64,000 nucleotides of DNA, taken from NCBI GenBank assembly GCA_937889645.1, contig CALBZE010000023.1, forward strand, positions 7,159-71,158, in the 5' to 3' direction. Positions 3,586-59,611 of the stretch are shown here, piece by piece; within the stretch, counting starts at the first letter, position 1, and every line of letters starts with the position of its first letter. A program made the translations under genes and the position numbers. The notes under the pieces are model-generated. The model did not search any database, was not told where the DNA came from, and saw only the letters and a program-made list of their open reading frames with translations. This DNA comes from an uncultured bacterium (GTDB lineage: Bacteria > Gemmatimonadota > Gemmatimonadetes > Longimicrobiales > RSA9).

Positions 3586-4689
3586 ATGCGGAAGGAGATC
3601 AGGCGGGGCCGGCGGCGCGCGCGTCGGCGGCTGGGCCGTCGGCAGTTCAGGATCGGGACGTGGTGGGTGGTGGGTTGGGCGGCGGTGCTGCTGGTGGCGG
3701 GGGTGACGGCGTTCCTGGAGAAGCGCAAGGAGTGGGAGGACATCAGCCGGCTGGTGGCGTACGCGCGGGAACGCGGGCAGGACCCGCTGGCGCTGATCGA
3801 GGCGGCGGGTCGTGCGAACCGGATCTTGTTCCTGGGTGACGTGCACGGGTCCGCGGCGCCGAAGCAGTGGGCGGCGGAGGCGATCGAGGTGCTGGCGCGG
3901 GGCCCGGGGCTGGACGCGGTGGTGCTGGAGGTGGGCGCGGACCAGCAGCCGTACATCGATGCGTACCTCGCGAGCGAGCCGGAGAATGCGACGATCCTGT
4001 TCGCGCATCCGCGGACGCTGAACCAGGCGCGAGGCGACGACCGTGCGTTTCTCGAGATCTACCGGCGGGTCTGGAAGCTGAACGAGGAGCTGGGCGCGGG
4101 CCGGCGGATCCGGATCGTGGCGGCGGATCTGCCGGGGTGGCCGCCGGAGGGCCGGTTGCCGCCGGCGGTGGCGGCGGCGCGGTACGCTGCGCGGGACGCG
4201 CACATGGAGGAGGTGATCGAGCGGGAGGTGCTGTCGGGTCGGCCCAAGGCGCGGGTCCTGATCTTCATGGGCGGCTACCATGCGCTGAAGCACGGCACGG
4301 CGACGCTGTCCGTCGCGGGCGCCTCGCCGGTGGAGGTGACGTGGCTCGGGGCGCGGCTGCGGGAACGGCATCCGGGCGAGGTGTTCTCGATCCTGCCGGA
4401 CGCGCCGCGGGGGAAGTCGTTCCGAGCGGACGCCGTCTCGTACGCGGCGACCCGGGCGTTCGACCTGCTGCAGCGGAACCTGGGCGGCGCGCCGTCGCCG
4501 TTCGGGCTGCGGGTGGACGAGCGGTTCGACTTCCTGGAGTCGCCGATCGTGGAGTCGGACCTGCCCGGGCTGAAGCTGTCGCTCGCGCCGAAAGGGTACA
4601 AGCTGCGGGAGATGGTCGACGGATATCTGTTCCTGGGCGGGGGCGGCAGGGGTAGTGGGCGGATGTCGACGACGGGCGGCACGCGGTAG
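3586..4689 (+). CDS. membrane-anchored protein, possibly ChaN/TIKI/erythromycin-esterase-superfamily-like (weak)
   Basis: The internal ATG at 3586 (MRKEIRRGRRRARRRLGRRQFRIGTWWVVGWAAVLLVAGVTAFL) gives a basic N-terminus plus one TM helix. The ILFLGDVHGS...VVLEVG...FMGGYHALKH pattern is the only basis for the family guess. Confidence 0.6.
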   Translation: MRKEIRRGRRRARRRLGRRQFRIGTWWVVGWAAVLLVAGVTAFLEKRKEWEDISRLVAYARERGQDPLALIEAAGRANRILFLGDVHGSAAPKQWAAEAIEVLARGPGLDAVVLEVGADQQPYIDAYLASEPENATILFAHPRTLNQARGDDRAFLEIYRRVWKLNEELGAGRRIRIVAADLPGWPPEGRLPPAVAAARYAARDAHMEEVIEREVLSGRPKARVLIFMGGYHALKHGTATLSVAGASPVEVTWLGARLRERHPGEVFSILPDAPRGKSFRADAVSYAATRAFDLLQRNLGGAPSPFGLRVDERFDFLESPIVESDLPGLKLSLAPKGYKLREMVDGYLFLGGGGRGSGRMSTTGGTR

Positions 4690-4749
4690 CGACGGCGGAG
4701 AGCGGCGCCCATCTGCCGCTCCCGGCCGCCCTATATCACGACGCCGCGG

Positions 4750-5553
4750 TCACCGCACGAGCAACGTTATGGCGGTGAGGGTGCCGAAGCCGATGAGCAG
4801 GCGCTTCAGGGTGAACTTGCCGCCGGTGACCGGGCGGGTCCAGACGAGCGCGACGCCACCGCACCCGGCCTGATACGCGTACTGTGGCGGGATCTCGGCC
4901 GCGCTCCGGTAGATCTCGACGCCCTCGACCTCTTTGGTGGTGGTGATGATGTCGAGATCTTCGGGTGCCACGGGGAGCCCGTCGACGAGGATCGTCATCG
5001 GGCACATGGAGCGACGGGGCACGGTGGCGAGGATGTGGCGCACCGACGCGTATCGCCGGACATCCTCGTGGAAGAAGATGCGCCCGACCCCGCGCTTGGC
5101 GTTCAGGTCGGCACGGCTGTAGAACTCGTCGAGCCGCGCATTTCCGTACCATCGCCGTTCGACGACGGTGAGGGGCTCGAGCATGATCGCCTCGGCGCTC
5201 ATGCGGATCTCGACGGTGACTCTCTGCGATTTGTCGACATCGACGACGGGCGTGGAGACGGCGACGTAGCCGATGTGCCGGACGGCGAGCGTGTACCGGC
5301 CGGCGTCGGGCGCCGAGACCGCGAAGAGCCCCAGCGTGTCGCTCAGCGTGGCGTTCACCTCCTTGCCGTTCTTGTCGAGGAGGACGACCTCGGCGTACGC
5401 AATGGGCGCGTTGCTGGTGGCATCCAGGACGGTGCCGGTCACGACCTGCGCGGCGGCGGGCGCGGCCGCGAGGAGCAGGGCGATGAGCGCGGAAAGCGCC
5501 GGGATTGTCGGAAGCGCGGGAAGGATTCGGGCGCGCACGGACGGGCGGCGCAT
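4750..5553 (-). CDS. CarboxypepD_reg-like domain + TonB-receptor plug-like domain protein lacking a barrel; C-terminal hydrophobic helix (267 aa)
   Basis: ATG at 5553 inside ORF 4750..7386. Signal peptide ...LLLAAAPAAAQ, then VVTGTVLDATSNAPIAYAEVVLLD...GRYTLAVRHIGY, then LEPLTVVER...ILVDGLPV...VEGVEIYRSAAEIPPQYA...VALVWTR. Ends in LLIGFGTLTAITLLVR. Confidence 0.8.
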   Translation of the reverse strand: MRRPSVRARILPALPTIPALSALIALLLAAAPAAAQVVTGTVLDATSNAPIAYAEVVLLDKNGKEVNATLSDTLGLFAVSAPDAGRYTLAVRHIGYVAVSTPVVDVDKSQRVTVEIRMSAEAIMLEPLTVVERRWYGNARLDEFYSRADLNAKRGVGRIFFHEDVRRYASVRHILATVPRRSMCPMTILVDGLPVAPEDLDIITTTKEVEGVEIYRSAAEIPPQYAYQAGCGGVALVWTRPVTGGKFTLKRLLIGFGTLTAITLLVR

Positions 5554-14842: not shown

Positions 14843-15034
14843 GAGATCGAACCTCCGCGGCGCCGGGGAGTCACGAAGGGCGTGACGGGCCATAATCGTG
14901 CCTGAACGGGCGGGGACGTCCGGGTGCGGCGGTGTCGGGGCTCGGCGGTGCGGAAGCGGCGGCGCGCTCTTGCGTGCGTGGACCCGGCGTGCGCCCTCGT
15001 CGCATGGCACGGAGCGTGTACCGCCGCCCCTTCG

Positions 15035-16039
15035 ATGGGAGCAGGAACGGAGATGTGGTGGCGCCGGGTCGGCTCGCCGGAGGAAGGGTTCGGCTACGTG
15101 ACGGCGGACGGCTCACCCGTGGAGTCGGAGCAGGAGTTGAGCCGCATCGCAGCGCTCGCCGTGCCGCCGGCGTGGACCCGGGTCCGGATCTCGCCCGACC
15201 CGTGCAGCAAGGTGCAGGCGTGGGGTTACGACCGCGCGGGCCGGAAGCAGTACATCTACAGCGCCGAGCACGTGGTGCATCGCGACCGGCGGAAGTGGGG
15301 TCGCGTCCTGCGCTACGCCCGCGTGCTCCCCGCGCTGCGCCGGGCGACGAACGAGCACCTGCGCGCCGACGGGCTGGGGCGCGAGAAGGTCCTGGCGACG
15401 GTCGTCCGCCTGATGAGCCGCGCGTTCTTCCGCGTCGGCAGCGAGCGCTACGCCGTGCGCAACCGCACGTTCGGGATCTGCACGCTGCGGAAGAGCCACC
15501 TCGAGATCCGCGGGAACGACCTGATCTTCACGTACTCCGGGAAGAGCCGCGTCGACCAGCGGCGCGTCGTCGCCGACACGCCGCTGGTCGAGATCATGAC
15601 CGAGCTGCTGGCGCTGCCGGGGAGCCGCCTGTTCCGCTACGTCGACGCCGCGGGGCGGGTCCGGAACGTGACGGCCGGTATGGTCAACCGCTACATCCGC
15701 GACGTGCTCGGCGGTCGGTACACGTCGAAGGATCTGCGCACCTTCGGCGGGACGGTGCGCGCGGCGACGATCCTGGCCGACCTCGGGCCCGCGGCGTCCG
15801 AGCGGGAGGCGCGGCGAAACATCGCACTGTGCTGCCGCCTCGTCGCCACCGAGCTCGGGAACACGCCGACGATCTGCCGGAACGCGTACGTGCACCCGGC
15901 GGTGCTGGACGGCTACCTGCGGGGGGTCACGATCGAGACGCACATGCCGCCGGAGCCGCAGACGGTCCACGCGGAGTCGCCCGTCCCGTACTATCCGGAA
16001 GAGGCGGCGCTGATCCGGTTCCTGGAGCGGTTCGCCTGA
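15035..16039 (+). CDS. DNA topoisomerase IB (poxvirus-like bacterial TopIB)
   Basis: ...VPPAWTRVRISPDP..KVQAWGYDRAGRKQYIYS...FRVGSERYA..N.TFGICTLRKSH...KDLRTFGGT...LGNTPTICRNAYVHP (catalytic Tyr context). ATG 15035 or 15053 as start; the upstream part of ORF 14924.. looks non-coding. Confidence 0.85.
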   Translation: MGAGTEMWWRRVGSPEEGFGYVTADGSPVESEQELSRIAALAVPPAWTRVRISPDPCSKVQAWGYDRAGRKQYIYSAEHVVHRDRRKWGRVLRYARVLPALRRATNEHLRADGLGREKVLATVVRLMSRAFFRVGSERYAVRNRTFGICTLRKSHLEIRGNDLIFTYSGKSRVDQRRVVADTPLVEIMTELLALPGSRLFRYVDAAGRVRNVTAGMVNRYIRDVLGGRYTSKDLRTFGGTVRAATILADLGPAASEREARRNIALCCRLVATELGNTPTICRNAYVHPAVLDGYLRGVTIETHMPPEPQTVHAESPVPYYPEEAALIRFLERFA

Positions 16040-17235
16040 TGCGGCGGGAAGGCGACGTCGCCGCCAGACGCCGACGCCGGCCGAGGCTCGCGTCGCTGCT
16101 CCAGCGCGGGCTCCGGCGCGCGGCCGAGGCGCCACTCGTGCACGGGAACGCCGGGACGCTCCTGATCGACGGGCCGCGCGCCTACCCGGCGATGCTCGAG
16201 CGGATCGCCGCGGCCGAGCGGTGCGTGCACTTCGAGAACTACATCTTCCGCGGCGACGACGTCGGCCGACGCTTCGCCGACGCGCTCGTCGACCGCGCCC
16301 GCGCGGGCGTCGAGGTGCGGGTCCTCTACGACTGGTTCGGCTCGATCCGCACGCCGCGGTCGTTCTGGAATCGCATGCGACGGGCCGGGTGCGAGGTGCT
16401 CGCGTTCGGCCCGCCATCGCTGAGGCGGCCGCACGCGGTCCTGTTCCGCGACCATCGCAAGCTGCTCGTCGTCGACGGCCGCACGGCCGTGGTCGGCGGG
16501 CTCTGCATCGGCGGCGAATGGCTGGGCGACGGCACGGCGCCGTGCTGGCGGGACACGGCCGTCCTGCTCGAGGGGCCCGTCGCACGCGAACTGGACCGCG
16601 CGTTCGTCCGGATGTGGCGCCGCGCCGGCGGGCGGACGCCGACCCCGCTCGACGCGCCCCCCGCCGACGCCGGCGACGTGGCCGTGCGCGTCGTCGACGG
16701 CCCGCCGGCCCACGCCCGCGCGTACCGCCTGTACCAGATCCTCGCCGCGATGGCCGGGCGATCCCTCTACGTGACCGGCGCCTACCCCCTCGCCCCGGTG
16801 TCGCTGCGACGCGCGCTCGCCGCCGCCGCCCGCGCCGGCGTCGACGTCCGGCTCCTCGTCCCCGGCCGCTCCGACGTGCCGCTCCTCAACCAGGCCGCCC
16901 GCGCGCACTACGGCTCCCTGCTCCGCGCCGGCGTGCGGATCTACGAGTGGACCGGCCCCATGCTCCACGCCAAGACGGTCGTCGCCGACGGTGCGCTCGC
17001 GCTGATCGGCTCCAGCAACCTCAACCCCTTCAGCTTCAGCGGGAACTACGAGCTGGACGTGGAGATCCAGGACGCGGCTCTGGCGGGCGAGCTGGAGCGG
17101 CAGTTCCTGCAGGACCTCGCCTCCGCCCGCGAGATCACCGAGGAGGCGTGGAGAGCACGGCCGGCGGCGCAGAGGTGGCGGGAGCGAGTCGGCGCGGCGG
17201 TGTTGTGGGTGCCGTATAGGTTGTATGGGGGGTAG
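16039..17235 (+). CDS. two-HKD phospholipase D superfamily protein (soluble, ClsB/cardiolipin-synthase-like), 398 aa
   Basis: The ATG at 16039 overlaps the TGA of TopIB (TGATG). HKD motifs RDHRKLLVVDG and MLHAKTVVADG...IGSSNLN. No N-terminal TM helices visible. Confidence 0.85.
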   Translation: MRREGDVAARRRRRPRLASLLQRGLRRAAEAPLVHGNAGTLLIDGPRAYPAMLERIAAAERCVHFENYIFRGDDVGRRFADALVDRARAGVEVRVLYDWFGSIRTPRSFWNRMRRAGCEVLAFGPPSLRRPHAVLFRDHRKLLVVDGRTAVVGGLCIGGEWLGDGTAPCWRDTAVLLEGPVARELDRAFVRMWRRAGGRTPTPLDAPPADAGDVAVRVVDGPPAHARAYRLYQILAAMAGRSLYVTGAYPLAPVSLRRALAAAARAGVDVRLLVPGRSDVPLLNQAARAHYGSLLRAGVRIYEWTGPMLHAKTVVADGALALIGSSNLNPFSFSGNYELDVEIQDAALAGELERQFLQDLASAREITEEAWRARPAAQRWRERVGAAVLWVPYRLYGG

Positions 17236-17248
17236 GTGTTGGGTGTTA

Positions 17249-17345
17249 GGGCTTGGGGCCTGGGGCTCAGGGCCTGGGGCTCAGGTGTTGGGCAACTCGG
17301 GGTCCGCCACCCCGAGCCCTGCGCCCTGGGCCCTGAGCCCCGGGG
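17249..17345. repeat. GC-rich nested inverted repeat built from TGGGGCTCAGGGCC-type units, immediately after the PLD gene stop
   Basis: TGGGGCTCAGGGCC (17261-17274) and TGGGGCTCAGG (17275-17285) are complementary to GGGCCCTGAGCCCCGGGG (17328-17345). Inner perfect hairpin CTCGGGG/CCCCGAG (17296-17302 / 17310-17316). No U-tract. Confidence 0.7.
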
Positions 17346-17350
17346 CGGTC

Positions 17351-17360
17351 GGGGGGGGGG
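17351..17360. other. G10 homopolymer tract
   Basis: Ten consecutive G read directly at 17351-17360. Confidence 0.95.
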
Positions 17361-17368
17361 CGGCGGTC

Positions 17369-17545
17369 ATGTAGAAACTGCACATTCGTCGGCGAATATC
17401 GCGAACCGTGTGCAGTTTTCCCCCACTAATGTGGAAATGCATCGCGGTGCGGCACGACCTGCGTTCACCGTGTGCAGTTGACCACGCTATTTGTAGAAAC
17501 GTCGCAAGCATCGCGATCGATCGCGATGCTTGCTACGTTTCTACA
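17369..17545. repeat. AT-richer island with three hairpin/palindrome units phased at 60-62 nt, each starting GTRGAAAY
   Basis: GTAGAAAC at 17371, GTGGAAAT at 17431, GTAGAAAC at 17493. CCGTGTGCAGTT at 17406 and 17468. 10-bp stem AAACTGCACA/TGTGCAGTTT (17375-84/17409-18). 54-nt palindrome at 17492-17545 with one mismatch. Confidence 0.8.
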
Positions 17546-17644
17546 CGCCCGGCTTCTCACCCGCGGTTCACGGGGCACGCGAGCATGCGATCGCGCGCAC
17601 ATGCGCGCGGCGTCCCTTACACGCCGGACTCCAACGCCGGCGTC

Positions 17645-17868
17645 CATCACAGGACCGCGTACCCACCGCCCACCCCTACGCTCTTCGCGCATCACAGGAC
17701 CGCGTGCCGACCGACCGCCGCTGCGCCCTCCGCCCATCACAGGACCGGGCGCCCCCCGCCCACCCCAACACTCTCCGCCAATCACAGGACCGCGCACCCC
17801 CACCCGCCCCAACACTCTCCGCCCATCGCAGTACCGGGCGCCCACCGTTTGCCTCACCGTCCCGCCGC
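17645..17868. repeat. five tandem copies of a 44-45-bp C-rich repeat (CATCACAGGACCGCG...)
   Basis: Unit starts at 17645, 17690, 17735, 17780 and 17824. Conserved head (C/A)ATC(A/G)CAG(G/T)ACCG(C/G)G and CCCACCCC/AACACTCTCCGCC tails. G-rich on the minus strand, directly downstream of the kinase stop (17897). Confidence 0.85.
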
Positions 17869-17896
17869 CCTCGGGGCTCGGCCGACGGACCCCGTC

Positions 17897-20419
17897 CTAC
17901 CGGGTACCCGAGCCCTGAGCCCCGAGCCCCGGGCCCTGGGGCCCGAGCCCCGGGCCCCGGGGCGGCCGGGCGGCGGCGGCGCACCGCGACGGCAGCCGCA
18001 GCGTGAAGGTGCTCCCCATGCCGGGGTGGCTTTCGACGCTCACGGTGCCGTCGAGGAGCGCGGCAAGGCGGCGGGCGATGGTGAGGCCCAGGCCCGTCCC
18101 GCCCTTCTCGCGGGTGATCGTGCTGTCGAGCTGGGTGAAGGGCTCGAAGATCAGCTCCTGCATGTCCTCGGGGATCCCGCGGCCGGTGTCGCGGACGTGG
18201 AAGGCGACGTGGTCCGCCGCCGTCGCGACCTCCAGCGCGACCTCGCCGGCGTCGGTGAACTTCACCGCGTTGCCCAGGAGATTGACGAGGATCTGGCGCA
18301 GCTTGCCGCCGTCGGTCTCCATGGCGAGACGGCCGTCGACGCCGTGGGTGCGGAGGGCGAGTCCTTTGGCCCTGGCCTCCGGCTCGATCATCGCGACGAC
18401 ATCGCGAGCGATCGCGGCCGCGTCGACGGTCGCGATCCTGACCTCCTCCTTCCCGGCTTCGGTCCGGGCGAAGGTCAGGATCTCTTCGATGATCGAGATG
18501 AGGTGCAGCGCGCTCTGCTGGATACGGCCGACGTGCTCGCGCTGGCGCTGGCTGATCGGGCCGGAGATGCCGCTCGCGAGGAGGTCGGCGTACCCGAGGA
18601 CGGCGGTCAGAGGCGTGCGCAGCTCGTGGCTCATGATGGCCAGGAACTGATCCTTCGCCTCGCTGGCCCGCTCTGCCGCCTCGCGGGCGTGGTGTTCGGC
18701 GCGGTAGGCCCGGGCGTTCTGGATCGCGCCGGCCACGCGACGAGCCAGCTCTTCGGCGAGAGGGATGTCCGCCTCCGAGAAGGTGCGGCCGGACTCGGCG
18801 TGGACGAGCGCGATCGCGCCGAAGCGGGTCTCGCCGATTTCGATCGGCACGACGAGGATCGAGCGAAGCCCGAGCGAGGGCAGCAGCTGGTAGCGCTCGG
18901 GGTCGGACCGCGCCTGCTCGTAGACCCACTCGGGAATGCCGGGCAGGAGGACCGAGCGGCCCGTCCGGATCACGGCGCCGACGCCGACCGCGGAATTGAA
19001 GCGCTGCGGGAACAGGCGCGTGAACGAGTCGGCCAGGCGACCCCGCTCCGGATCCGCGTGCACTCCGGCGACCCGACGGATCTGGTCGTCCTCCTCGACC
19101 AGGAAGATGGAGCACGAGTCGGCGATCTCGGGGACCGCCAGCTCGGCCACGCGATGGAGCGTCTCCTCGTATTCCGGCGAGCTGGCGAGCACGGCGCTCG
19201 CGTCGGCCAGGAAACGCAGCGCCCGCTCGGTGCGACGCTGCTCGCGGACGTCGATACCGATCCCGACCTGCGTGTCGTCGGAGAGGCGAATGTTGGCCCA
19301 CGACGTCTCCAGCACCGCGCCGCTCCGCGCCGTGACCAGCACGTCGCGCCATTCGCCTTCGGCCGACTGCATGAAGCGCCGCATCTCCTCGCGATAGTCG
19401 GGATCGGGGTAGCAGAGCTCCATCAGATCCCGCGTCGAGGCGTCCTCGCGCGACCAACCGAGGACCCGCTCGAACTCCCGGTTCACCTTGAACTGCCGCA
19501 GCGCGGGGTCGTAGATCGTGATCATCACGGGGATCGCGTCGATGATGCGCTCGAGCAGCTCGCGCTCGTGCCGCAGCTCGCGCTCGGCCCTCACGCTCTC
19601 CGTGATGTCCCGGGCGACGCCGACCACCCCGATGATCGCGCCGTCCACGTTTCGCAGTGGGGTTTTCGTCGTGAAGAAGTGGCGCACCGTGCCGGCGGCG
19701 ATCCCGACCTGCTCGGTCGTGCGCGGCTCGCCCGCCTCCAGGACTTCGCGGTCCCGCGCGATCGCGCGTTCGGCTGTTTCCGGCTCGAAGATCTCGAAGT
19801 CGGTCTTGCCGATCGTCTCCTCGACCGACCGGCCGACCATGCGCGCGCCCGCTTCGTTGATGAGGAGGTAGCGGCCTTCGACGTCTTTGACGAATACCGC
19901 ATCGGTGGTCGCGTCCAGCACGGCCTTGAGAAGGTCCCGGCTCTCGCGCAGCTCGGCCTCCATGCGGCGCCGCCATTCGACCTCCTGGCGCGCCGACTCG
20001 CGGCCGGTCACGTCCCGGACGAGCTGGTACGCGCCTTCGATGCTGCCGTCCGGCGCGAGCAGCGGCGCGAAGGTGACCTCGTAGACGGTCTTCACCGTCG
20101 GAGACCGACCCGCCGGGACCACCTCCGTGAACGACTCACCCGCGAGCGCACGGCGCCACCGGCCCATCACGAGCTCGCGTTCCTCGGGCCAGCCGGCGAG
20201 CACGGCTTCCAGCTCCGAGCCGCGCTCGACCGACACGCCGAACCGCCGCTCGAAGTCCTCCCGGAACGCCCGGCTCACGTACGTGAACCGGAAGTCCGCG
20301 TCGATCGCAGCGATGCGTTCCTGCGACTGGTCCACAATGCGCGCGAGGGTCGCCGCCGCGGTGTCCGCTGCTCCCGCGACTCGTCGGTCTTCCGGATCCG
20401 CTCTACGGGTACGGGTCAT
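17897..20419 (-). CDS. cytoplasmic multi-PAS + GAF sensor histidine kinase (840 aa)
   Basis: HisKA box FLAIMSHELRTPLTAVLGYADLL. HATPase boxes LVNLLGNAVKFT, DTGRGIP, GGTGLGLTIARRL. Several PAS-like segments and a GAF-like segment upstream. ATG at 20419. Confidence 0.9.
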   Translation of the reverse strand: MTRTRRADPEDRRVAGAADTAAATLARIVDQSQERIAAIDADFRFTYVSRAFREDFERRFGVSVERGSELEAVLAGWPEERELVMGRWRRALAGESFTEVVPAGRSPTVKTVYEVTFAPLLAPDGSIEGAYQLVRDVTGRESARQEVEWRRRMEAELRESRDLLKAVLDATTDAVFVKDVEGRYLLINEAGARMVGRSVEETIGKTDFEIFEPETAERAIARDREVLEAGEPRTTEQVGIAAGTVRHFFTTKTPLRNVDGAIIGVVGVARDITESVRAERELRHERELLERIIDAIPVMITIYDPALRQFKVNREFERVLGWSREDASTRDLMELCYPDPDYREEMRRFMQSAEGEWRDVLVTARSGAVLETSWANIRLSDDTQVGIGIDVREQRRTERALRFLADASAVLASSPEYEETLHRVAELAVPEIADSCSIFLVEEDDQIRRVAGVHADPERGRLADSFTRLFPQRFNSAVGVGAVIRTGRSVLLPGIPEWVYEQARSDPERYQLLPSLGLRSILVVPIEIGETRFGAIALVHAESGRTFSEADIPLAEELARRVAGAIQNARAYRAEHHAREAAERASEAKDQFLAIMSHELRTPLTAVLGYADLLASGISGPISQRQREHVGRIQQSALHLISIIEEILTFARTEAGKEEVRIATVDAAAIARDVVAMIEPEARAKGLALRTHGVDGRLAMETDGGKLRQILVNLLGNAVKFTDAGEVALEVATAADHVAFHVRDTGRGIPEDMQELIFEPFTQLDSTITREKGGTGLGLTIARRLAALLDGTVSVESHPGMGSTFTLRLPSRCAAAARPPRGPGLGPQGPGLGAQGSGTR
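17907..17962. repeat. GCCCTGAGCCCC/GAGCCCCGGGCCC repeat block, inverted relative to 17249-17285, lying inside the 3' end of the kinase gene
   Basis: CCCGAGCCCTGAGCCCCGAGCCCCGGGCCCTGGGGCCCGAGCCCCGGGCCCCGGGG. GAGCCCCGGGCCC occurs twice. Its reverse complement shares GGGGCTCAGGG with the left block. Confidence 0.75.
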
Positions 20420-36613: not shown

Positions 36614-37365
36614 ACCGGACGACGGATGCGCTCGCTGCCGGCCCGATGGGTTCGGCCGCGCCGGCGGCGAGGGGGCGGTTGCGGGCGCTGGTCGCGGTGG
36701 AGCTGCAGCGGGCGATGCGGTCGCCGGGGGCGCTGGTGGGCGTCGCGGGGTTCCTGATCCTCCTGGGCGTGGGGCACTGGTCGTACTGGACGTCGCTCCC
36801 GCCGCGGCCGGAGGACGATCGCCTCTTCGTGTGGGGCTACATCGTCGCGATGTGCGGGATGTTCAGGCTCGGCCTGAGCGAGGATCGGGAGCTGGCGCTG
36901 GACGAGTACCTCGTTTCGAACCTGGTCTCGCCTCTGCGATACGCGCTCTCCAAGCTCCTGGCGACGATCGCCGTTGTCGGCATTTTCGGCGCGGGCGCGT
37001 TCGTGTGCGCCGCGGCGGCGAGCGCGGGCGACTTCCAGTACGCGGCGTGGTACACGGTACTCATGACGCTGGTCGTCTGGACGCTGCTCCCCGTATTGCT
37101 CCTGGTCGAGTTCGGGATCGACACGCGCTACCCCGCTCTGTTCGTGCTGCTCATCTTCATCGCGGCGGTCGTCGTCGGCCGACTCGCCCTGGGCCCCATC
37201 GCGATCGTGCGGGTCATGGGGTTGGAACTCGAGCGGTACGTCTACTCGTCCCTGGCGCCGCTGGGCGTGCGCGCGCTCGTCGCCGGGTGGGTCCTCGTGC
37301 TCCTCTACCCGTTGTGGCGGCTCCGGCTGGTGGGACGGGCGGGGTGGTCTTGGGCGAAGGTGTAG
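36601..37365 (+). CDS. ABC-2-type transporter permease (254 aa)
   Basis: ATG at 36601 overlaps the ATPase gene by 13 nt. About six hydrophobic helices (ALVGVAGFLILLGV, GYIVAMCGMF, LLATIAVVGIFGAGAFV, VLMTLVVWTLLPVLLLV, ALFVLLIFIAAVVVG, ALVAGWVLVLLYPL). Confidence 0.8.
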   Translation: MDVVNRTTDALAAGPMGSAAPAARGRLRALVAVELQRAMRSPGALVGVAGFLILLGVGHWSYWTSLPPRPEDDRLFVWGYIVAMCGMFRLGLSEDRELALDEYLVSNLVSPLRYALSKLLATIAVVGIFGAGAFVCAAAASAGDFQYAAWYTVLMTLVVWTLLPVLLLVEFGIDTRYPALFVLLIFIAAVVVGRLALGPIAIVRVMGLELERYVYSSLAPLGVRALVAGWVLVLLYPLWRLRLVGRAGWSWAKV

Positions 37366-37555
37366 CGGGCAGGGAGAGCGGGTTGGGTGGGCCAGTCGAG
37401 CGGAAGGCCCGAGTGAGCGAGCGGGGCGAGCGGGCAGGGCGGATTGGCACCCGCCCCACTCGCCCCGATTCACCCCTGGCTCGGCCCATCGCTCGGCCCT
37501 CGGTCCACCCTTCGCTCAACCCTTCACCATCCACCGCGGCCGGGTGGCCGGGAAC

Positions 37556-54642: not shown

Positions 54643-56280
54643 ATGACATCGAGGAATCGTGATCGCGTCCGCCGGGTCGCGCGGCTCGTGGCGGCGCCGT
54701 CGGGCAGACGCCGCTCGGAGGCGGCGCCGTCCGTCCTTCGCAGGTCCATCGCCGCGGCCATCGCTGCGTTGGCGCTTGCTACGCTCGGCGCGTCGCCGGC
54801 GACGGCGCAACGAGCCGACTTCGGTTCCGCACCGGCCCCGCCCCGGATCGACACCCTCGCCCTCCGCGAGCACACCCGCTTCCTCGCCGACGACCGGCTC
54901 GAGGGGCGCGGGACGGGGACGCCGGGCGAGCGCATCGCCGCCGACTACATCCGTCGGCAGCTCGAGCGGATCGGCGCGCGCGGCGCCGCGGCCGACGGCG
55001 GCTACCTCCAGCCGATCCCGCTGCGCGTGGCCACGATCGACGACGCCGCGACGCGAGTCGCCGTGGTACGCGACGGCACGCGTGCCGAATTCGCGAGCGG
55101 CAGCGACTTCATCGTCGAGCGCGGCGGCCGCGGCGCGTTCCGCGACTTTTCCGGGGCGGCGATCTTCGCCGGGACCGCGGCCATCGCGCGCGACGCGCTG
55201 GCCCGCCACGAGCGGCTGGACGGGCACGTGGTCGTCCTGATCGGCACGCTCGGCGACCACGCCGCGGAGCTGATCCCGGATTGGACGCGGCGCGGCGCCG
55301 AAGGCGTCGTCTACATCGTCCCCGAGAGGGACCGATTCGATGCGTACGCGCGCAGCCGCGGCGGTGAGCGCTACTACGTCGATGCCGACGTCGACGAACC
55401 CGCCTGGCAGTCGCCGCTCCCCACGCTCGTGGCCGGGCCGCGCCTGGCCGCGGCGCTGCTGGCCGGTGCGCCGCTCGCGCCCGACGCGCTGGACGGTTCG
55501 AAGCCGTTCGACGCCCTCCCCCTCGGCCGGACGCTCGAGGCGACGATCCGCGTCGCCGACACGCCGCTCCCCGCCGCGAACGTCGCGGCGCTGATCCCGG
55601 GGCGCGACCCGGCGCTGCGGGACGAGGTCGTCGCCTACACGGCCCACTACGACCACGTCGGGATCGGCCCGGCCGACGCGACCGGCGATTCGATCTACAA
55701 CGGCTTCTCGGACAACGCCGCGGGCGTCGCAATGCTGCTCGCCATCGGCGAGGCGTTCGTGCGCGAGCCGCCGGCGCGGTCGGTCCTACTCCTCTTCTTC
55801 ACGGGCGAGGAGCTGGGGTTGCTCGGATCGGCGTACTACGTGGCGGAGCCGCTGGTCCCGTTGGAGCGGACCGTCGCCGTCATCAACCTGGACGCCGGCG
55901 CGCCGCCCGCGCCGCCCCGGAGCTGGCGGGTCGCGGGCGGGACATCGTCGACCCTGGGCGACGTCGCGCGCAGCGTCGCCGCGGCGCAGGGGTGGACAGC
56001 CGAGCCGTCCGGCCCGCGGCCCAACTCGGATTACTGGCCGTTCCTCCACGCCGGCGTGCCGGCCGTCTTCCTCATCCCCGGCTCCGACTGGGAGGGTGTC
56101 ACGCGCGCCGAGCAGGAGGCGCTCCGCGCCCGCTGGGACCGCTACCACCAGCCCGGCGACGAGTGGCACCCGGAATTCCCCTTCGCGGGGCTGCGGCGTT
56201 ACGCGGAATTCGCGTGGCTGGTCGGGGCGGAGGTGGCGAATGCGCCCGGGCGGCCGAGGATGATGGGTGGGGGTGGGTGA
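54643..56280 (+). CDS. secreted M28-family metallopeptidase (aminopeptidase-like), 545 aa
   Basis: ATG at 54643. Signal ...AALALATLGASPATAQ. AHYDHVG, FSDNAAGVAMLL, LLFFTGEELGLLGSAYY metal-ligand contexts. The C-terminus ...RPRMMGGGG runs into the G-rich repeat. Confidence 0.85.
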   Translation: MTSRNRDRVRRVARLVAAPSGRRRSEAAPSVLRRSIAAAIAALALATLGASPATAQRADFGSAPAPPRIDTLALREHTRFLADDRLEGRGTGTPGERIAADYIRRQLERIGARGAAADGGYLQPIPLRVATIDDAATRVAVVRDGTRAEFASGSDFIVERGGRGAFRDFSGAAIFAGTAAIARDALARHERLDGHVVVLIGTLGDHAAELIPDWTRRGAEGVVYIVPERDRFDAYARSRGGERYYVDADVDEPAWQSPLPTLVAGPRLAAALLAGAPLAPDALDGSKPFDALPLGRTLEATIRVADTPLPAANVAALIPGRDPALRDEVVAYTAHYDHVGIGPADATGDSIYNGFSDNAAGVAMLLAIGEAFVREPPARSVLLLFFTGEELGLLGSAYYVAEPLVPLERTVAVINLDAGAPPAPPRSWRVAGGTSSTLGDVARSVAAAQGWTAEPSGPRPNSDYWPFLHAGVPAVFLIPGSDWEGVTRAEQEALRARWDRYHQPGDEWHPEFPFAGLRRYAEFAWLVGAEVANAPGRPRMMGGGG

Positions 56281-56398
56281 GGGGGCGTGTGGTGATGGGC
56301 GGTGGGGGTGGCGTGGCGGTGTGGTGGCGGGTGGCGGTGTGGTGGTGTGGCCCGGTTGGTTGGGGCGTGCGTAGTGTGTGGTGGCGGGTGGGTTTCGC
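56262..56398. repeat. G/T-rich low-complexity block (GGTGG/GGGTG/GGCGG iterations) starting inside the last codons of the M28 gene
   Basis: tgatgggtgggggtgggtgagggggcgtgtggtgatgggcggtgggggtggcgtggcggtgtggtggcgggtggcggtgtggtggtgtgg... read directly. Many G3-G5 runs on the plus strand. Confidence 0.8.
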
Positions 56399-56417
56399 AG
56401 GGACCGCGTCGCGGCCC

Positions 56418-56590
56418 AAAGTGCACCCATGGCCGGCTTGCCGCGGGAGCGGGTGCGAATTGGTGGAACTATTCTACCCAGTCGCACCATCGTTTCGGGC
56501 GGTGAATTTTCGGGTTCGGTTGGGTGGAAATATTCGACCAAATCGCACCATCGTCGTGCGGCGGGAGTTGTGGGTGCACTTCGGTAGAAT
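56418..56590. repeat. AT-richer island: an 11-bp inverted repeat enclosing two 32-nt direct repeats, with GTRGAAW motifs phased at 60-61 nt
   Basis: AAGTGCACCCA (56419-56429) / TGGGTGCACTT (56571-56581). GGTGGAACTATTCTACCCAGTCGCACCATCGT (56462-56493) versus GGTGGAAATATTCGACCAAATCGCACCATCGT (56523-56554), 28/32 identical. A third, shortened copy GGTAGAATCGCGCCACC at 56583. Confidence 0.8.
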
Positions 56591-56780
56591 CGCGCCACCC
56601 GACACCCACGCCGGCCCGGTGCTACCCCGCGCCCATCGCCCACTCGCCCTCGCCGCGCGTTCGCCCGCCGGGCCGGCTCCCGCAGCCGCCCCGGCCCGCC
56701 CACCGCACTTGCCCCGGACCGCACCGCGCCCGATCTTCCCCCGGCAATTCCCAGTATTGTCCCTGACGAGGAGGTGGAAC

Positions 56781-57221
56781 ATGGCCGCGGATCGGATCGC
56801 TGAAGCGACTTGGGAGGGGAGCCTGGCGCAGGGTCAGGGGAGGATCGACCTGAAGAGCAGCGGGCTCGCGACCGCGATGCCCGTGACGTGGGCGTCGCGC
56901 ACAGAACAGCCGGACGGGAAGACCAGCCCCGAGGAGCTGCTCGCGGCGGCGCACGCCTCGTGCTTCGCCATGGCGCTGTCGCACCAGCTCGCCAGCGCGG
57001 GGCACACGCCCGAGCGGCTCGATGTCCGCGCCGTCGCAACGTTCGACAAAGTGGGCGAGGGCTTCCGGGTGACGAGCGTGCGCCTGAACGTCCGCGGCCG
57101 CGTCCCCGGCGCCGACGAGGCCGCGTTCATGAATGCCGCCAACGCCGCCAAGGACGGCTGCCCGATCTCCCGGGCGCTCCAGGGGAACGTCGACATCTCG
57201 CTGGAGGCGATGCTGGAGTAG
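56781..57221 (+). CDS. osmC: OsmC/Ohr-family peroxiredoxin (146 aa)
   Basis: GAGGAGGTGG SD before ATG 56781. ...TSPEELLAAAHASCFAMALS... and ...AKDGCPISRAL... (two conserved Cys contexts). Confidence 0.9.
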   Translation: MAADRIAEATWEGSLAQGQGRIDLKSSGLATAMPVTWASRTEQPDGKTSPEELLAAAHASCFAMALSHQLASAGHTPERLDVRAVATFDKVGEGFRVTSVRLNVRGRVPGADEAAFMNAANAAKDGCPISRALQGNVDISLEAMLE

Positions 57222-57451: not shown

Positions 57452-58075
57452 CTAGTTGAGGTACGGCTCGATCCGCTCGGCGAAGCTCGTCCGCGCGCGG
57501 TGCAGCCGAGACTTCACCGTGCCGAGGTTCACGCCCGTGATCTCGGCGATCTCCTCGTAGCTCTTCCCCTCGAGCTCCCGGAGCTTGAACACCAGGCGAT
57601 GGTGCTCCGGCAGCTCGTCGACCATCCGCTCGACCAGGTCCTGGAGGTACCGCTTCCGGTACATGTCGTCAGGCCGCATCGAAGAGTCCTCGAACTGCAG
57701 CGGCCGATGCTCCGGCTCCCAATGCGTCGTCAGCTTCTGGAACAGGACCAGCGGGCTGCGGGAACGGTTCCGCAGCTCGTTCTTCGCCAGGTTCGAGCAG
57801 ATCGTGTAGATCCACGTCGAGAACTTCTTCGACTGGTCGAACCGGTGGAGGTGCCGCGTGACGCGGATGAACGCCTCCTGGACCAGGTCCTCGGCCCGGT
57901 CCCGGTCGCCGGTCTTCCGCGCAATGAAATGCACCAGCTTGTCCCGGTAGCGATCGTACAGCTCCGAGAATGCGCCGGCATGGCCCTCCAGGTGTGCAGC
58001 CACCAGCTCGCCGTCGTCCAGCTCGTGGAGCGGAGCGCGAAGCCCCGCCTTCGGCTTCACGGTCGTCGTGGCCAT
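57452..58075 (-). CDS. ECF-type RNA polymerase sigma-70 family factor (207 aa)
   Basis: AAGGAG SD before ATG 58075. Region 2 (AEDLVQEAFIRVTRHLHRFD...FSTWIYTICSNLAKNELR) and region 4 (LPEHHRLVFKLRELEGKSYEEIAEITGVNLGTVKSRLHRAR). Confidence 0.9.
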   Translation of the reverse strand: MATTTVKPKAGLRAPLHELDDGELVAAHLEGHAGAFSELYDRYRDKLVHFIARKTGDRDRAEDLVQEAFIRVTRHLHRFDQSKKFSTWIYTICSNLAKNELRNRSRSPLVLFQKLTTHWEPEHRPLQFEDSSMRPDDMYRKRYLQDLVERMVDELPEHHRLVFKLRELEGKSYEEIAEITGVNLGTVKSRLHRARTSFAERIEPYLN

Positions 58076-58207
58076 AGGTCTCCTTTCCCGGGGCGACGAG
58101 GGCACACACACGTACTCCCGCCGGCCGCGAACGCCATCCAAATCAACGAGAATCGGGAACGGTTCCCCGGCTCGTCATTGTCGCGAGAAATCAATGCTAC
58201 AACTTAT

Positions 58208-58255
58208 AAAAACTCGCCCCCGAACTCAAGGGTTGCGTGGGGCGAGTTTTCTCTG
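58208..58255 (-). terminator. intrinsic-terminator-like hairpin in the AT-rich region upstream of the sigma gene
   Basis: 12-bp perfect stem AAAACTCGCCCC/GGGGCGAGTTTT (58209-58220 / 58239-58250) with an 18-nt loop. T-runs follow on both strands (minus strand: UUUUUAUAAG). Confidence 0.5.
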
Positions 58256-58454
58256 TTTCCAATAATCATTGAAACAACGCCGCGCCGCGCCGATACTGGT
58301 GGTGATGGGGTTGTGGTGAGCCCGAAAACGCTGCGGTGGGCGACGGGTGCGTGGGTTCGGCGCATAGGCGGTGCTCCGCGTTCGGGGGAGGGTGTGGGAT
58401 GAGCCCAATGTAGGGAAGGAGGGCGGGGCGCGCCATGGCGTTGTAGGCCAGCGG

Positions 58455-58800: not shown

Positions 58801-58995
58801 CCGGGGCGCGATGTAGCCGGGCGCCGTGTGGCCGGGCGCCGTGTGGCCGGGCGCCGTGTGGCCGGGCGCAATGTAGCCGGGCGCAATGTAGCCGGGCGCG
58901 ATGTAGCCGGGCGCGATGTAGCCGGGCGCGATGTGGCCGGGCGCGATGTGGCCGGGCGCGATGTGGCCGGGCGCGGTGCGACCGGGGCGCGGGGA
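58801..58995. repeat. 15-bp minisatellite, 11 well-conserved + 2 degenerate units (GCCGGGCGC + variable hexamer)
   Basis: GCCGGGCGC occurs every 15 bp from 58816 to 58966. Hexamers come in blocks: 3x CGTGTG, 2x AATGTA, 2x GATGTA, 3x GATGTG, 1x GGTGCG. Confidence 0.95.
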
Positions 58996-59152
58996 CGCGG
59001 CGCAACGGGGGCGCGGTCGCACTACGTCCCCGAGGGCGGTCGCGGGGCCGGCCGTCACGCCGAGCCGCCGGTGCGGGTCACTCCGACCGGCCGGGCGTGC
59101 GCCCGTTCACCCTCCCGACGTGCGCCCGCTCGCCCTCGCGGCGTGCGCCCGT

Positions 59153-59611
59153 TCACCCTCCGGGCGTGTGCCAGCGGAAGGTGGCGGCGTCCTGGCGGGC
59201 ACCGACGACCTCTGCGACGGGCCGGTCGGGGAGGCGGACGAGGACCCGCACGGCCTCGGGGACGACGAGGATGTAGTCGGTGTGCTCGCCGCCGACCGTC
59301 GTCACTTGGAGGACGTGGCCGCCCTGGTCGGAGAGTCCGAAACCGGGGAGGCCGCGGAGCACGCGGGCGGTCACCTCGAGGCGGCCGGGCTGGCCGCGGA
59401 TCAGGCGGAGCGTGCCGGGCACTCCGGCGTCGACGCGGACCGTGAGGCGGTCGCCGAGGAAGGTGTAGGTCTGCCGGACCGTCTCGGCGTCGTGGCTCTG
59501 GGCCGCCGCGGGCGCGGGACGCACGGCCGCGGCGGCCGCGGCGAGCGCGATCGCCGCGACCGTGACGACACGCGGGCGAGTGCTGCGGGCGGTTCGAGCG
59601 TGCCGGGTCAT
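59153..59611 (-). CDS. secreted hypothetical protein (152 aa)
   Basis: ATG at 59611 inside ORF 59153..60088. MTRHARTARSTRPRVVTVAAIALAAAAAAVRPAPAAAQ signal, then a beta-rich-looking body. Confidence 0.65.
   Translation of the reverse strand: MTRHARTARSTRPRVVTVAAIALAAAAAAVRPAPAAAQSHDAETVRQTYTFLGDRLTVRVDAGVPGTLRLIRGQPGRLEVTARVLRGLPGFGLSDQGGHVLQVTTVGGEHTDYILVVPEAVRVLVRLPDRPVAEVVGARQDAATFRWHTPGG

Follow-up and report, generated by a model that had tools for sequence, protein, structure and literature searches.

Within a 64-kb stretch of DNA from an uncultured bacterium of the Longimicrobiales (Gemmatimonadota), hereafter the window, we characterized a non-coding core of ~180 nt that consists of three units of ~61 nt headed by the motif GTRGAAAY and lies between a phospholipase D (PLD)-like gene and a convergent PAS/GAF sensor histidine kinase gene. 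The core is missing from the same junction in close relatives, which shows that it entered this junction in the lineage of the present genome, and its homologues at an unrelated locus in two other Longimicrobiales species indicate that it was not generated locally. We read it, with a probability of roughly 0.35, as a small, non-autonomous, low-copy, GTAG-headed hairpin element of the kind represented by repetitive extragenic palindromic (REP) sequences, REP doublets forming hairpins (REPINs) and miniature inverted-repeat transposable elements (MITEs). This reading is best supported by the GTAG heads beside palindromes, the head-to-head pairing, the imperfect terminal inverted repeats and the AT-richness of the core, and further by the occupied and empty sites in related genomes and the different loci used in different species. 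Insertion, or mobility, which a first-pass annotation of the sequence had not considered, is the reading most strongly indicated by the comparative data.

The first-pass annotation had placed an AT-richer core between convergent stops at 17235 (+) and 17897 (-), ~660 nt apart, and both points are borne out. Codon-position GC periodicity is absent from the 660-nt gap, which is non-coding, and GC drops to 0.52-0.57 over 17361-17570, an island that ranks second lowest in a window of 71% GC overall. A coding reading was rejected on two grounds: there is neither periodicity of GC at third codon positions nor codon periodicity in the differences between species. The peptide from the open + frame, compared with 1.84 billion proteins, retrieved only an unrelated low-complexity repeat protein.

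Because the convergent PLD/kinase gene pair is kept in relatives, we could compare orthologous junctions directly; the site is occupied here and empty, or filled by arrays only, in the relatives. The gap measures 46 and 41 nt in two contigs (L022, L023) of the Longimicrobiales metagenome-assembled genome (MAG) GCA_036381255.1. In an 82%-identical relative it measures ~175 nt, as read from a short-read contig (L021) that spans a 100-N gap of this relative's MAG (L001), and consists of G-rich and inverted C-rich heptamer arrays only, with neither the AT-rich core nor the 45-nt repeats that accompany it in the window. Array copy number in this relative varies among three samples, and five other contigs end inside the array. 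Gaps of 41-46 nt, or of arrays only, therefore mark ~540 bp of the window (17369-17906) as a lineage-specific insertion or expansion.

Homologues of the core occur at a second locus, such that the module is present in three species in total in the data examined. A metagenome scan for the foot of the core's palindrome yielded 54 loci, nearly all of them unrelated terminator-type hairpins; the sole homologue among them, on a 74%-GC contig (L117), carries the whole module at 4636-4812. The two copies align without gaps over 182 nt with 123/182 positions identical (68%; pairwise blastn E = 9e-22). Their differences are concentrated in the interiors of units 1 and 2, the 3′ 84 nt being 81% identical, and are distributed 22/21/16 by codon position. 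The L117 module is flanked by a DAO-type oxidase gene and an AbiEi_4/DUF559 gene in divergent orientation and is located ~300 nt upstream of the gene with the AbiEi_4 DNA-binding domain, a context unrelated to that of the PLD/kinase pair. A third species (L133) has the module's first 64 nt (L133:2-65(-)), up to the contig end, at the same DAO locus, where its DAO is 86% identical. Between these two species, the first ~115 nt of DAO-proximal intergenic DNA are roughly 85% identical (read by eye), with indels nearer the arrays. Three more distant DAO loci (L129, L131, L132) lack the module. One of them retains a decayed DUF559 gene (L131:4403-4777; residues 114-196 and 274-314), so the absence of the module there may reflect a deletion instead of an empty site. 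No DUF559/AbiEi remnant or homologue was found beside the copy in the window.

Within the core, GTRGAAAY occurs on the + strand at 17371, 17431 and 17493, as first described, and we found an extra minus-strand copy at 17537-17544. These four copies fall within 175 nt; the window as a whole has 6 against 1.16 expected, a number reached by 0/100 shuffles. The unit heads read GTAG or GTGG (17371, 17431, 17493 and, on the minus strand, 17544), and the GTAG at 17371-17374 is unpaired in the folds of all three homologous copies. The recurrence of CCGTGTGCAGTT at 17406 and 17468 was likewise as reported, with an exact repeat that amounts to the 13-mer ACCGTGTGCAGTT at a spacing of 62 nt. Our analysis also confirmed the 10-bp stem of unit 1 (17375-84/17409-18, 100% complementary) and the 54-nt palindrome of unit 3 (17492-17545, 26/27 arm matches). 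The latter is a head-to-head pair with GTAG facing outward; among the close-range inverted repeats of the 64 kb it is the second longest and by far the most perfect long one (96% over 27-28 nt). The observed hairpin region has a folding z-score of -6.7 on the + strand and -5.3 on the - strand. At a larger scale, the ends of the core form an imperfect inverted repeat (17350-17378/17537-17565, 72% complementary), as do those of the L117 copy (4633-4658/4787-4812, 73%).

The proposed 60-62-nt phasing held up in part. Using global unit-unit alignments against 1000 dinucleotide shuffles, we found that the score of units 1 and 2 was reached by 0/1000 shuffles and that of units 1 and 3 by 1/1000, but that of units 2 and 3 by 131/1000. 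The units are thus better described as diverged tandem copies than as a strict array.

These features recall REPs, REPINs and bacterial interspersed mosaic elements (BIMEs). GTAG-tagged REPs carry an unpaired GTAG at one end of a palindrome and form head-to-head (HH) dimers (Di Nocera et al. 2013, PMC3733652), and GTAG acts in the cleavage of single-stranded REPs by TnpA-REP (PMC8266576). Their units measure 20-40 nt, with 6-13-bp stems and loops of up to 27 nt, and exceed 100 copies per genome (PMC3733652; Bertels & Rainey 2011, PMC3116915; PMC8266576). Similarly, the core has an unpaired GTAG/GTRG beside an imperfect palindrome, a 10-bp stem inside the published range (long structured loops are known there as well), G-T pairs in its stems and a head-to-head pair foldable into one long hairpin. 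Its units, tandem as well as inverted, form a cluster with a spacing of 20-100 bp and lie in an intergenic region between convergent genes. The core also resembles bacterial MITEs of the Correia, ERIC, RUP and Nezha/Chunjie types in being short, non-coding and AT-richer than the host genome, in its imperfect 26-29-nt terminal inverted repeats (72-73% complementary) and stable fold, and in its presence at one locus and absence from the orthologous site in relatives.

An element of this kind would be recognized as a folded single strand by a trans-acting HUH/Y1-type transposase, either a REP-associated tyrosine transposase (RAYT) or an IS200/IS605-like enzyme, a proposal in keeping with the hairpins, their GTAG heads and the fact that no short target duplication is present. 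It would land in or beside the short, hairpin-prone tandem arrays found at gene ends in this clade. Following insertion, slippage and intrastrand template switching could expand the flanking arrays, and the same processes could sharpen a pair of imperfect palindromes, giving the 10-bp stem and the 26/27 palindrome that only this genome has. The present effect of the element would probably be passive, as a barrier or 3′-end hairpin between two convergent transcripts. The non-coding DNA of Longimicrobiales is almost unstudied; a REP/REPIN-like origin would extend GTAG-headed hairpin elements to a new phylum, in an unusual low-copy three-unit form, and would link them to hypervariable arrays that break every short-read assembly at this site.

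Several observations weigh against a REP/REPIN- or MITE-like element. Copy number, the defining property of both families, looks low, in contrast to the >100 copies of REPs. A second copy is absent from both the 64-kb window and ~150 kb of related Longimicrobiales DNA, short-read unitigs pass straight through the core in the L117 species, and the central 24-mer of the palindrome has no match in metagenomes. Searching 185,579 species genomes for CCGTGTGCAGTT-N8-16-TGTRGAAAY returned nine scattered single hits, at chance level, with a pattern that did not recover the window locus and would miss L117. The units, at 48-54 nt, exceed the usual 20-40 nt; unlike REPs, the three units are conserved together between species, as a single 177-nt block, and are embedded in hypervariable inverted tandem arrays. 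Neither a RAYT gene nor any other transposase was seen among the ~18 window open reading frames (ORFs) scanned with Pfam, and no parent insertion sequence was identified. A short target-site duplication is lacking at both loci (flanks ...GGTCA/TGTAG...CTACA/CGCCC in the window and ...GGCGC/GTAG...CTAC/ACGTT in L117, / denoting the element boundary); a ~60-nt imperfect duplication takes its place in the window, which is not normal for HUH or DDE transposition. Finally, block conservation at the orthologous DAO locus (L117 versus L133) suggests host-level constraint, unlike a decaying selfish copy. Given the apparently low copy number, the unit size, the missing short target duplication and this block conservation, an RNA or single-stranded DNA (ssDNA) fold and a protein-binding array remain serious rivals.

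Conservation among the copies is concentrated in invariant blocks of 10-23 nt that are mutually complementary, separated by hairpin interiors that are hypervariable in sequence and fixed in length. In order, blocks 1-3 are GTAGAAA(C/G)TGCACA, GTTTTCCCCC(A/G)CTAATG(T/C)GG and TGTGCAGTTGACCAC, and blocks 4-6 are TGTAGAAACGT, TCGCGAT and GCTTGCTACGTTTCTACACG. GTAGAAAC-TGCACA pairs with TGTGCAGTT and TGTAGAAACGT with ACGTTTCTACA, block 4 and the last block together making up the 11-bp foot of unit 3. Block 1 forms helix P1 with block 3, and block 2 holds the 4-bp hairpin P2. The long-range pairing of helix P1, not the local one, is kept in both full-length copies, the local partner at 17409 being intact only here. 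Between L117 and L133 the blocks are intact and the unit-1 interior is ~47% identical. Within the small hairpin P2, the third pair is A-U in the window, G-U in L133 and G-C in L117; the G-U intermediate pairs on the + strand only. The consensus fold is somewhat better on + (-51.7 kcal/mol) than on - (-43.1 kcal/mol) and contains several G-U pairs, and spacing is gap-free between the window and L117 despite 32% divergence.

These data could be explained by a structured non-coding RNA, or a functional ssDNA fold, of the + strand, in which P1 closes a domain with P2 and two variable arms and is followed by P3 (unit 3). Every invariant block sits in a complementary pair, and the blocks are kept at the orthologous locus while the interiors diverge. 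We consider this reading doubtful, though with an appreciable chance of being right. Given the complementarity of the blocks and the A-U/G-U/G-C series, the structured RNA that the first-pass annotation had proposed may still hold. However, covariation is confined to that single pair and is not significant (325/500 shuffles do as well; with three sequences it is anecdotal), no sigma-70-like promoter was found in the region, and an intrinsic terminator scan gave one weak 5-bp site at 17470-17487 and none at units 1 or 3. The unit-1 DNA hairpin, with a z-score of -4.9 in the window copy, is no stabler than shuffles in L117 and L133 (~0 in both). The flanks offer no common transcription context, being the ends of convergent genes in the window and the starts of divergent genes in L117. 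Rfam models gave 0 matches in the window at the gathering threshold and, at a relaxed E-value, only hairpin noise from miRNA-precursor models (16-30 bits against thresholds of 39-110); a tRNA search with ARAGORN returned nothing meaningful.

We also consider, at a somewhat lower likelihood, that the module is not selfish DNA and is instead a host-constrained, previously undescribed Longimicrobiales element: an RNA or ssDNA fold with invariant helix feet, fixed geometry and hypervariable interiors, held in the loop of a giant stem of inverted, fast-evolving arrays. Such an element might, for instance, be a site of recombination or diversification, or a nucleoprotein site, without counterpart among known families. 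A host-constrained RNA or DNA fold would constitute a new family with a clear testable consensus.

The first-pass annotation had alternatively proposed that a long perfect duplex serves as an RNase III substrate. As a conserved function this is rejected, since the homologous unit in L117 has only 20/27 arm matches and the perfect inner stem of unit 3 is specific to this genome. Judging from the three sequences, it is in this genome alone that unit 1 forms a strong local hairpin and unit 3 a perfect palindrome, and both appear to be recent features. Intrastrand template switching is a mechanism by which palindromes are corrected, and formerly imperfect palindromes may have recently been "corrected" here in this way.

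Invariant 10-23-nt blocks at exactly kept spacing, with free sequence between them, would also be consistent with a phased protein-binding array, either an operator or a nucleoprotein site, with GTAGAAAC-type half-sites that recur, directly and inverted, at intervals of 60-62 bp or about six helical turns. The clustering of four GTRGAAAY copies and the position of the L117 module upstream of the AbiEi_4-domain gene are in line with such an array, as are two other loci: an unrelated metagenome contig with four TGTAG-N8-CTACA-like 18-mers in one apparent promoter region (L118:1690-1820), and a region at 56.4 kb of the window, upstream of an OsmC-like gene, with the same 61-nt phasing of palindromic units. 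In the window, however, two 3′ ends flank the module, which has neither a gene to regulate nor a regulator gene beside it, and there is no DUF559/AbiEi homologue. The flanks differ in orientation from those in L117, and the middle head is not conserved (GTGG/GCGG). Searches for known sites gave no sigma-54 match, no DnaA box (<=1 mismatch) in 17200-17950 and no parS (<=3 mismatches) in the window. The phased binding sites proposed in the first pass are possible but unproven, and overall we regard an array of this type as unlikely.

Other unrelated metagenome or provirus loci share pieces of the unit-3 foot. GAAACGTAGCAAGC is shared with L079:5750-5811, and two proviruses of one high-GC isolate (L024:4613-4661, L065:1112-1160) carry a 49-nt hairpin with the same 9-nt foot. 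Such loci may be chance matches or may represent a widespread protein-binding motif.

The features of the junction are collected in Table 1.

Table 1. Coordinates of genes, repeats and structural features at the PLD/kinase junction (window numbering)
Feature	Coordinates	Strand	Basis and remarks
PLD-like (phospholipase D superfamily) gene, left flank	15934..17235	+	Pfam PLDc_2/PLDc; orthologues P0001/P0002 433 aa; start approximate, set from these orthologues
G-rich heptamer/14-mer tandem array (GGGCCTG GGGCTCA ...)	17226..17294	+	Repeat search, TRF period 14; begins on PLD stop codon
C-rich heptamer array no. 1	17310..17346	+	Repeat search, TRF; inverted relative to G-rich array
Left copy of imperfect direct duplication of kinase 3′ end	17338..17368	+	CCCCGGGGCGG[T/C]CGGG..GGCGGCGG; partner ~17952-17976
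Conserved core module	17371..17547	+	Bounds GTAGAAAC ... GTTTCTAC(ACG); homologous to L117:4636-4812, partial L133:2-65(-)
Unit 1	17371..17418	+	Unpaired GTAG head, 10-bp stem AAACTGCACA / TGTGCAGTTT, 24-nt interior
Long-range helix P1	17376..17479	+	AACTGCACA (17376-17384) with TGTGCAGTT (17471-17479); RNAalifold, 8 invariant pairs
Small hairpin P2, CCAC-TAAT-GTGG	17423..17434	+	Within invariant block GTTTTCCCCCRCTAATGYGG
Unit 2	17431..17491	+	Head GTGGAAAT; second ACCGTGTGCAGTT; conserved TTGACC at 17478-17483
Unit 3, 54-nt palindrome	17492..17545	.	26/27; 11-bp foot TGTAGAAACGT/ACGTTTCTACA and right arm GCTTGCTACGTTTCTACACG conserved
GC-rich short palindromes	17587..17608	.	GCGATCGC; GCGCGCA-CA-TGCGCGC; sequence not conserved in homologue
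C-rich 45-nt tandem array, 4.6 copies	17644..17847	+	TRF score 226; conserved 13-mer CATCACAGGACCG
PAS/GAF sensor histidine kinase gene, right flank	17897..20419	-	Pfam; orthologues named Longimicrobiales
C-rich heptamer array no. 2	17907..17959	+	Inverted relative to G-rich array; inside last 29 codons of kinase ORF

Around the core, we found heptamer arrays on both sides, a 45-nt array and a ~60-nt duplication, all absent from the first-pass annotation. The G-rich array contains a G-quadruplex (G4)-type motif match at 17241-17279 and forms a long imperfect hairpin with C-rich array no. 1 (17259-17292/17311-17344, 79%); this pair of arrays matches the entire intergenic region of the closest fully resolved relative (L021/L001). 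The 45-nt array has partial complementarity to both the 3′ end of the PLD gene and the G-rich flank on the left. At the other side, HATPase_c ends at residue 811/840 of the kinase ORF, and the last 29 codons run into a C-rich array. The direct duplication, which includes array no. 1, brackets the insert (~17310-17368 versus ~17907-17976, 75% identity over ~60 nt). Of the further palindromes noted downstream of unit 3, GCGCGCA-CA-TGCGCGC is present at 17593-17608, but GCGATCGC at 17587 is not special: a HIP1-like enrichment of GCGATCGC was rejected, its 18 occurrences in the window being at chance level (15.4 expected).

Inverted heptamer arrays occupy the PLD/kinase junction in three species, with unit sequences unlike each other: GGGCCTG/GGGCTCA in the window, AGGAATC/AGGTATC/AGGGATC in L021 and telomere-like GGGCTTA/GGGGTTA in L017 (L021:2620-2760; L019/L020 ends; L017:8460-8546). 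Short-read contigs break within these arrays, whose copy number varies between samples. The L117 core is also flanked by tandem arrays, with 18-mers at left and 21-mers at right that are ~78% mutually complementary (4394-4638 and 4844-5032; also L124, L125, L126). The last left unit continues into the first bases of the core (GGCGCGTA...), suggesting array growth by slippage at the core boundary. Across four samples of the L117 species the core has 1 single-nucleotide polymorphism in 185 nt, and the arrays vary, with ~10, 5 or 3 units at left and 6 or 3 at right. Arrays are therefore unstable in copy number between samples of one species, and the core is stable.

Short tandemly repeated heptamers (STRRs) are found in cyanobacteria, and MIRU-type repeats are intergenic variable-number tandem repeats (VNTRs). 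The flanking intergenic repeats of 7, 14, 18, 21 and 45 nt resemble both, as far as general knowledge of these families goes, in that copy number differs between samples of one species. They differ in forming inverted G-rich/C-rich array pairs around a conserved unique core, with units that change by locus and species. In practical terms, the arrays offer length markers at strain level, and the module can serve as a short query when complete genomes of the clade are surveyed.

The hypervariable heptamer arrays at exactly this junction in relatives raise the question of whether the whole region arose locally, through the growth of repeats and the formation of palindromes where convergent genes meet at a hairpin-prone site, and serves only as a bidirectional terminator or spacer. 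The perfect palindrome is lineage-specific, as are the arrays and the 45-nt repeats, and many metagenome hairpins share the foot by chance. The GAAAC-stem-GTTTC form between convergent genes also resembles bidirectional intrinsic terminators (A-tract, stem, T-tract). Yet the stem is far longer than a terminator needs, the T-tract is weak, units 1 and 3 have no terminator site, and the L117 copy lies between divergent gene starts, where a terminator is unneeded. The homology of the core to an unrelated locus in two other species largely refutes a local origin, which we consider very improbable. The earlier statement that terminators alone do not explain the region is likewise borne out: the core forms a separate module that is also conserved outside this species, it occurs as well between divergent gene starts, and the scan gave no good terminator or promoter.

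The 60-62-nt period, and the alternation of conserved blocks with fixed-length segments that vary between species, could also suggest a degenerate orphan CRISPR-like mini-array, with 34-nt "repeats" ending in GTRGAAAY and 26-28-nt "spacers". Only 23/34 positions agree between the two "repeats", TRF detects no tandem array of ~61-nt period, and the scanned ORFs contain no cas-like domain. In addition, another species has kept this arrangement unit by unit, which is not the behaviour of a spacer array. We regard this reading as effectively refuted and give it practically no credence.

Searches for other mobile or replicative sites were negative. No RYYYAAC, as expected of attC, occurs on either strand of 17361-17560, and the cumulative GC skew shows no reversal near 17.4 kb (dif was outside the search). 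Three viral-contig scans, together with blastn against phage and plasmid collections, returned nothing relevant to a phage or plasmid origin.

The first-pass annotation had pointed to a related layout at 56418-56590. The layout is indeed alike, but there is no detectable sequence homology with the core. This region (56250-56710) begins with a G-rich 32-nt array (56261-56351). Next come two 44-nt units that are 82% identical at 61-nt spacing, each holding a 37-nt imperfect palindrome (GGTGCGAATTGGTGGAA-CTA-TTCTACCCAGTCGCACC), and after them a third partial unit (56573-56599) and C-rich sequence. The region lies upstream of the OsmC-like gene (56781-57221), beyond which is an extracytoplasmic function (ECF) sigma factor gene (57452-58174, -). 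It may represent the same architectural class a second time, without being related to the core. Between convergent genes at 37360-37530 there is also a long imperfect inverted repeat, G-rich/C-rich and composed of short repeats, that has no AT-rich core; giant GC hairpins of this sort may be widespread at gene ends in this genome.

The window encodes, among others, TamB, PAS/GAF histidine kinases, a peptidase M28 and the ECF sigma factor (Pfam). Its proteins have no entry of their own in a 5.8-billion protein collection, where top matches are 82% and 78% identical; the nearest source-named database proteins carry the label Longimicrobiales. A 767-aa ORF at 14932-17235 comprises more than one gene: a bacterial topoisomerase IB gene lies at 14924-16039, in a frame that differs from that of the ORF, and the PLD-like gene begins at about 15934; the overlap between these two genes is a single base in relatives. 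The lowest-GC island of the window (0.44; 58121-58330) is located just upstream of the ECF sigma gene start and holds an A/T-rich stretch with a TATAAA-like sequence. Farther along are a 15-nt tandem array of 12.5 copies at 58804-58991 (GGGCGCGATGTGGCC, 93% matches) and a 23-nt array of 3.4 copies at 59094-59172.

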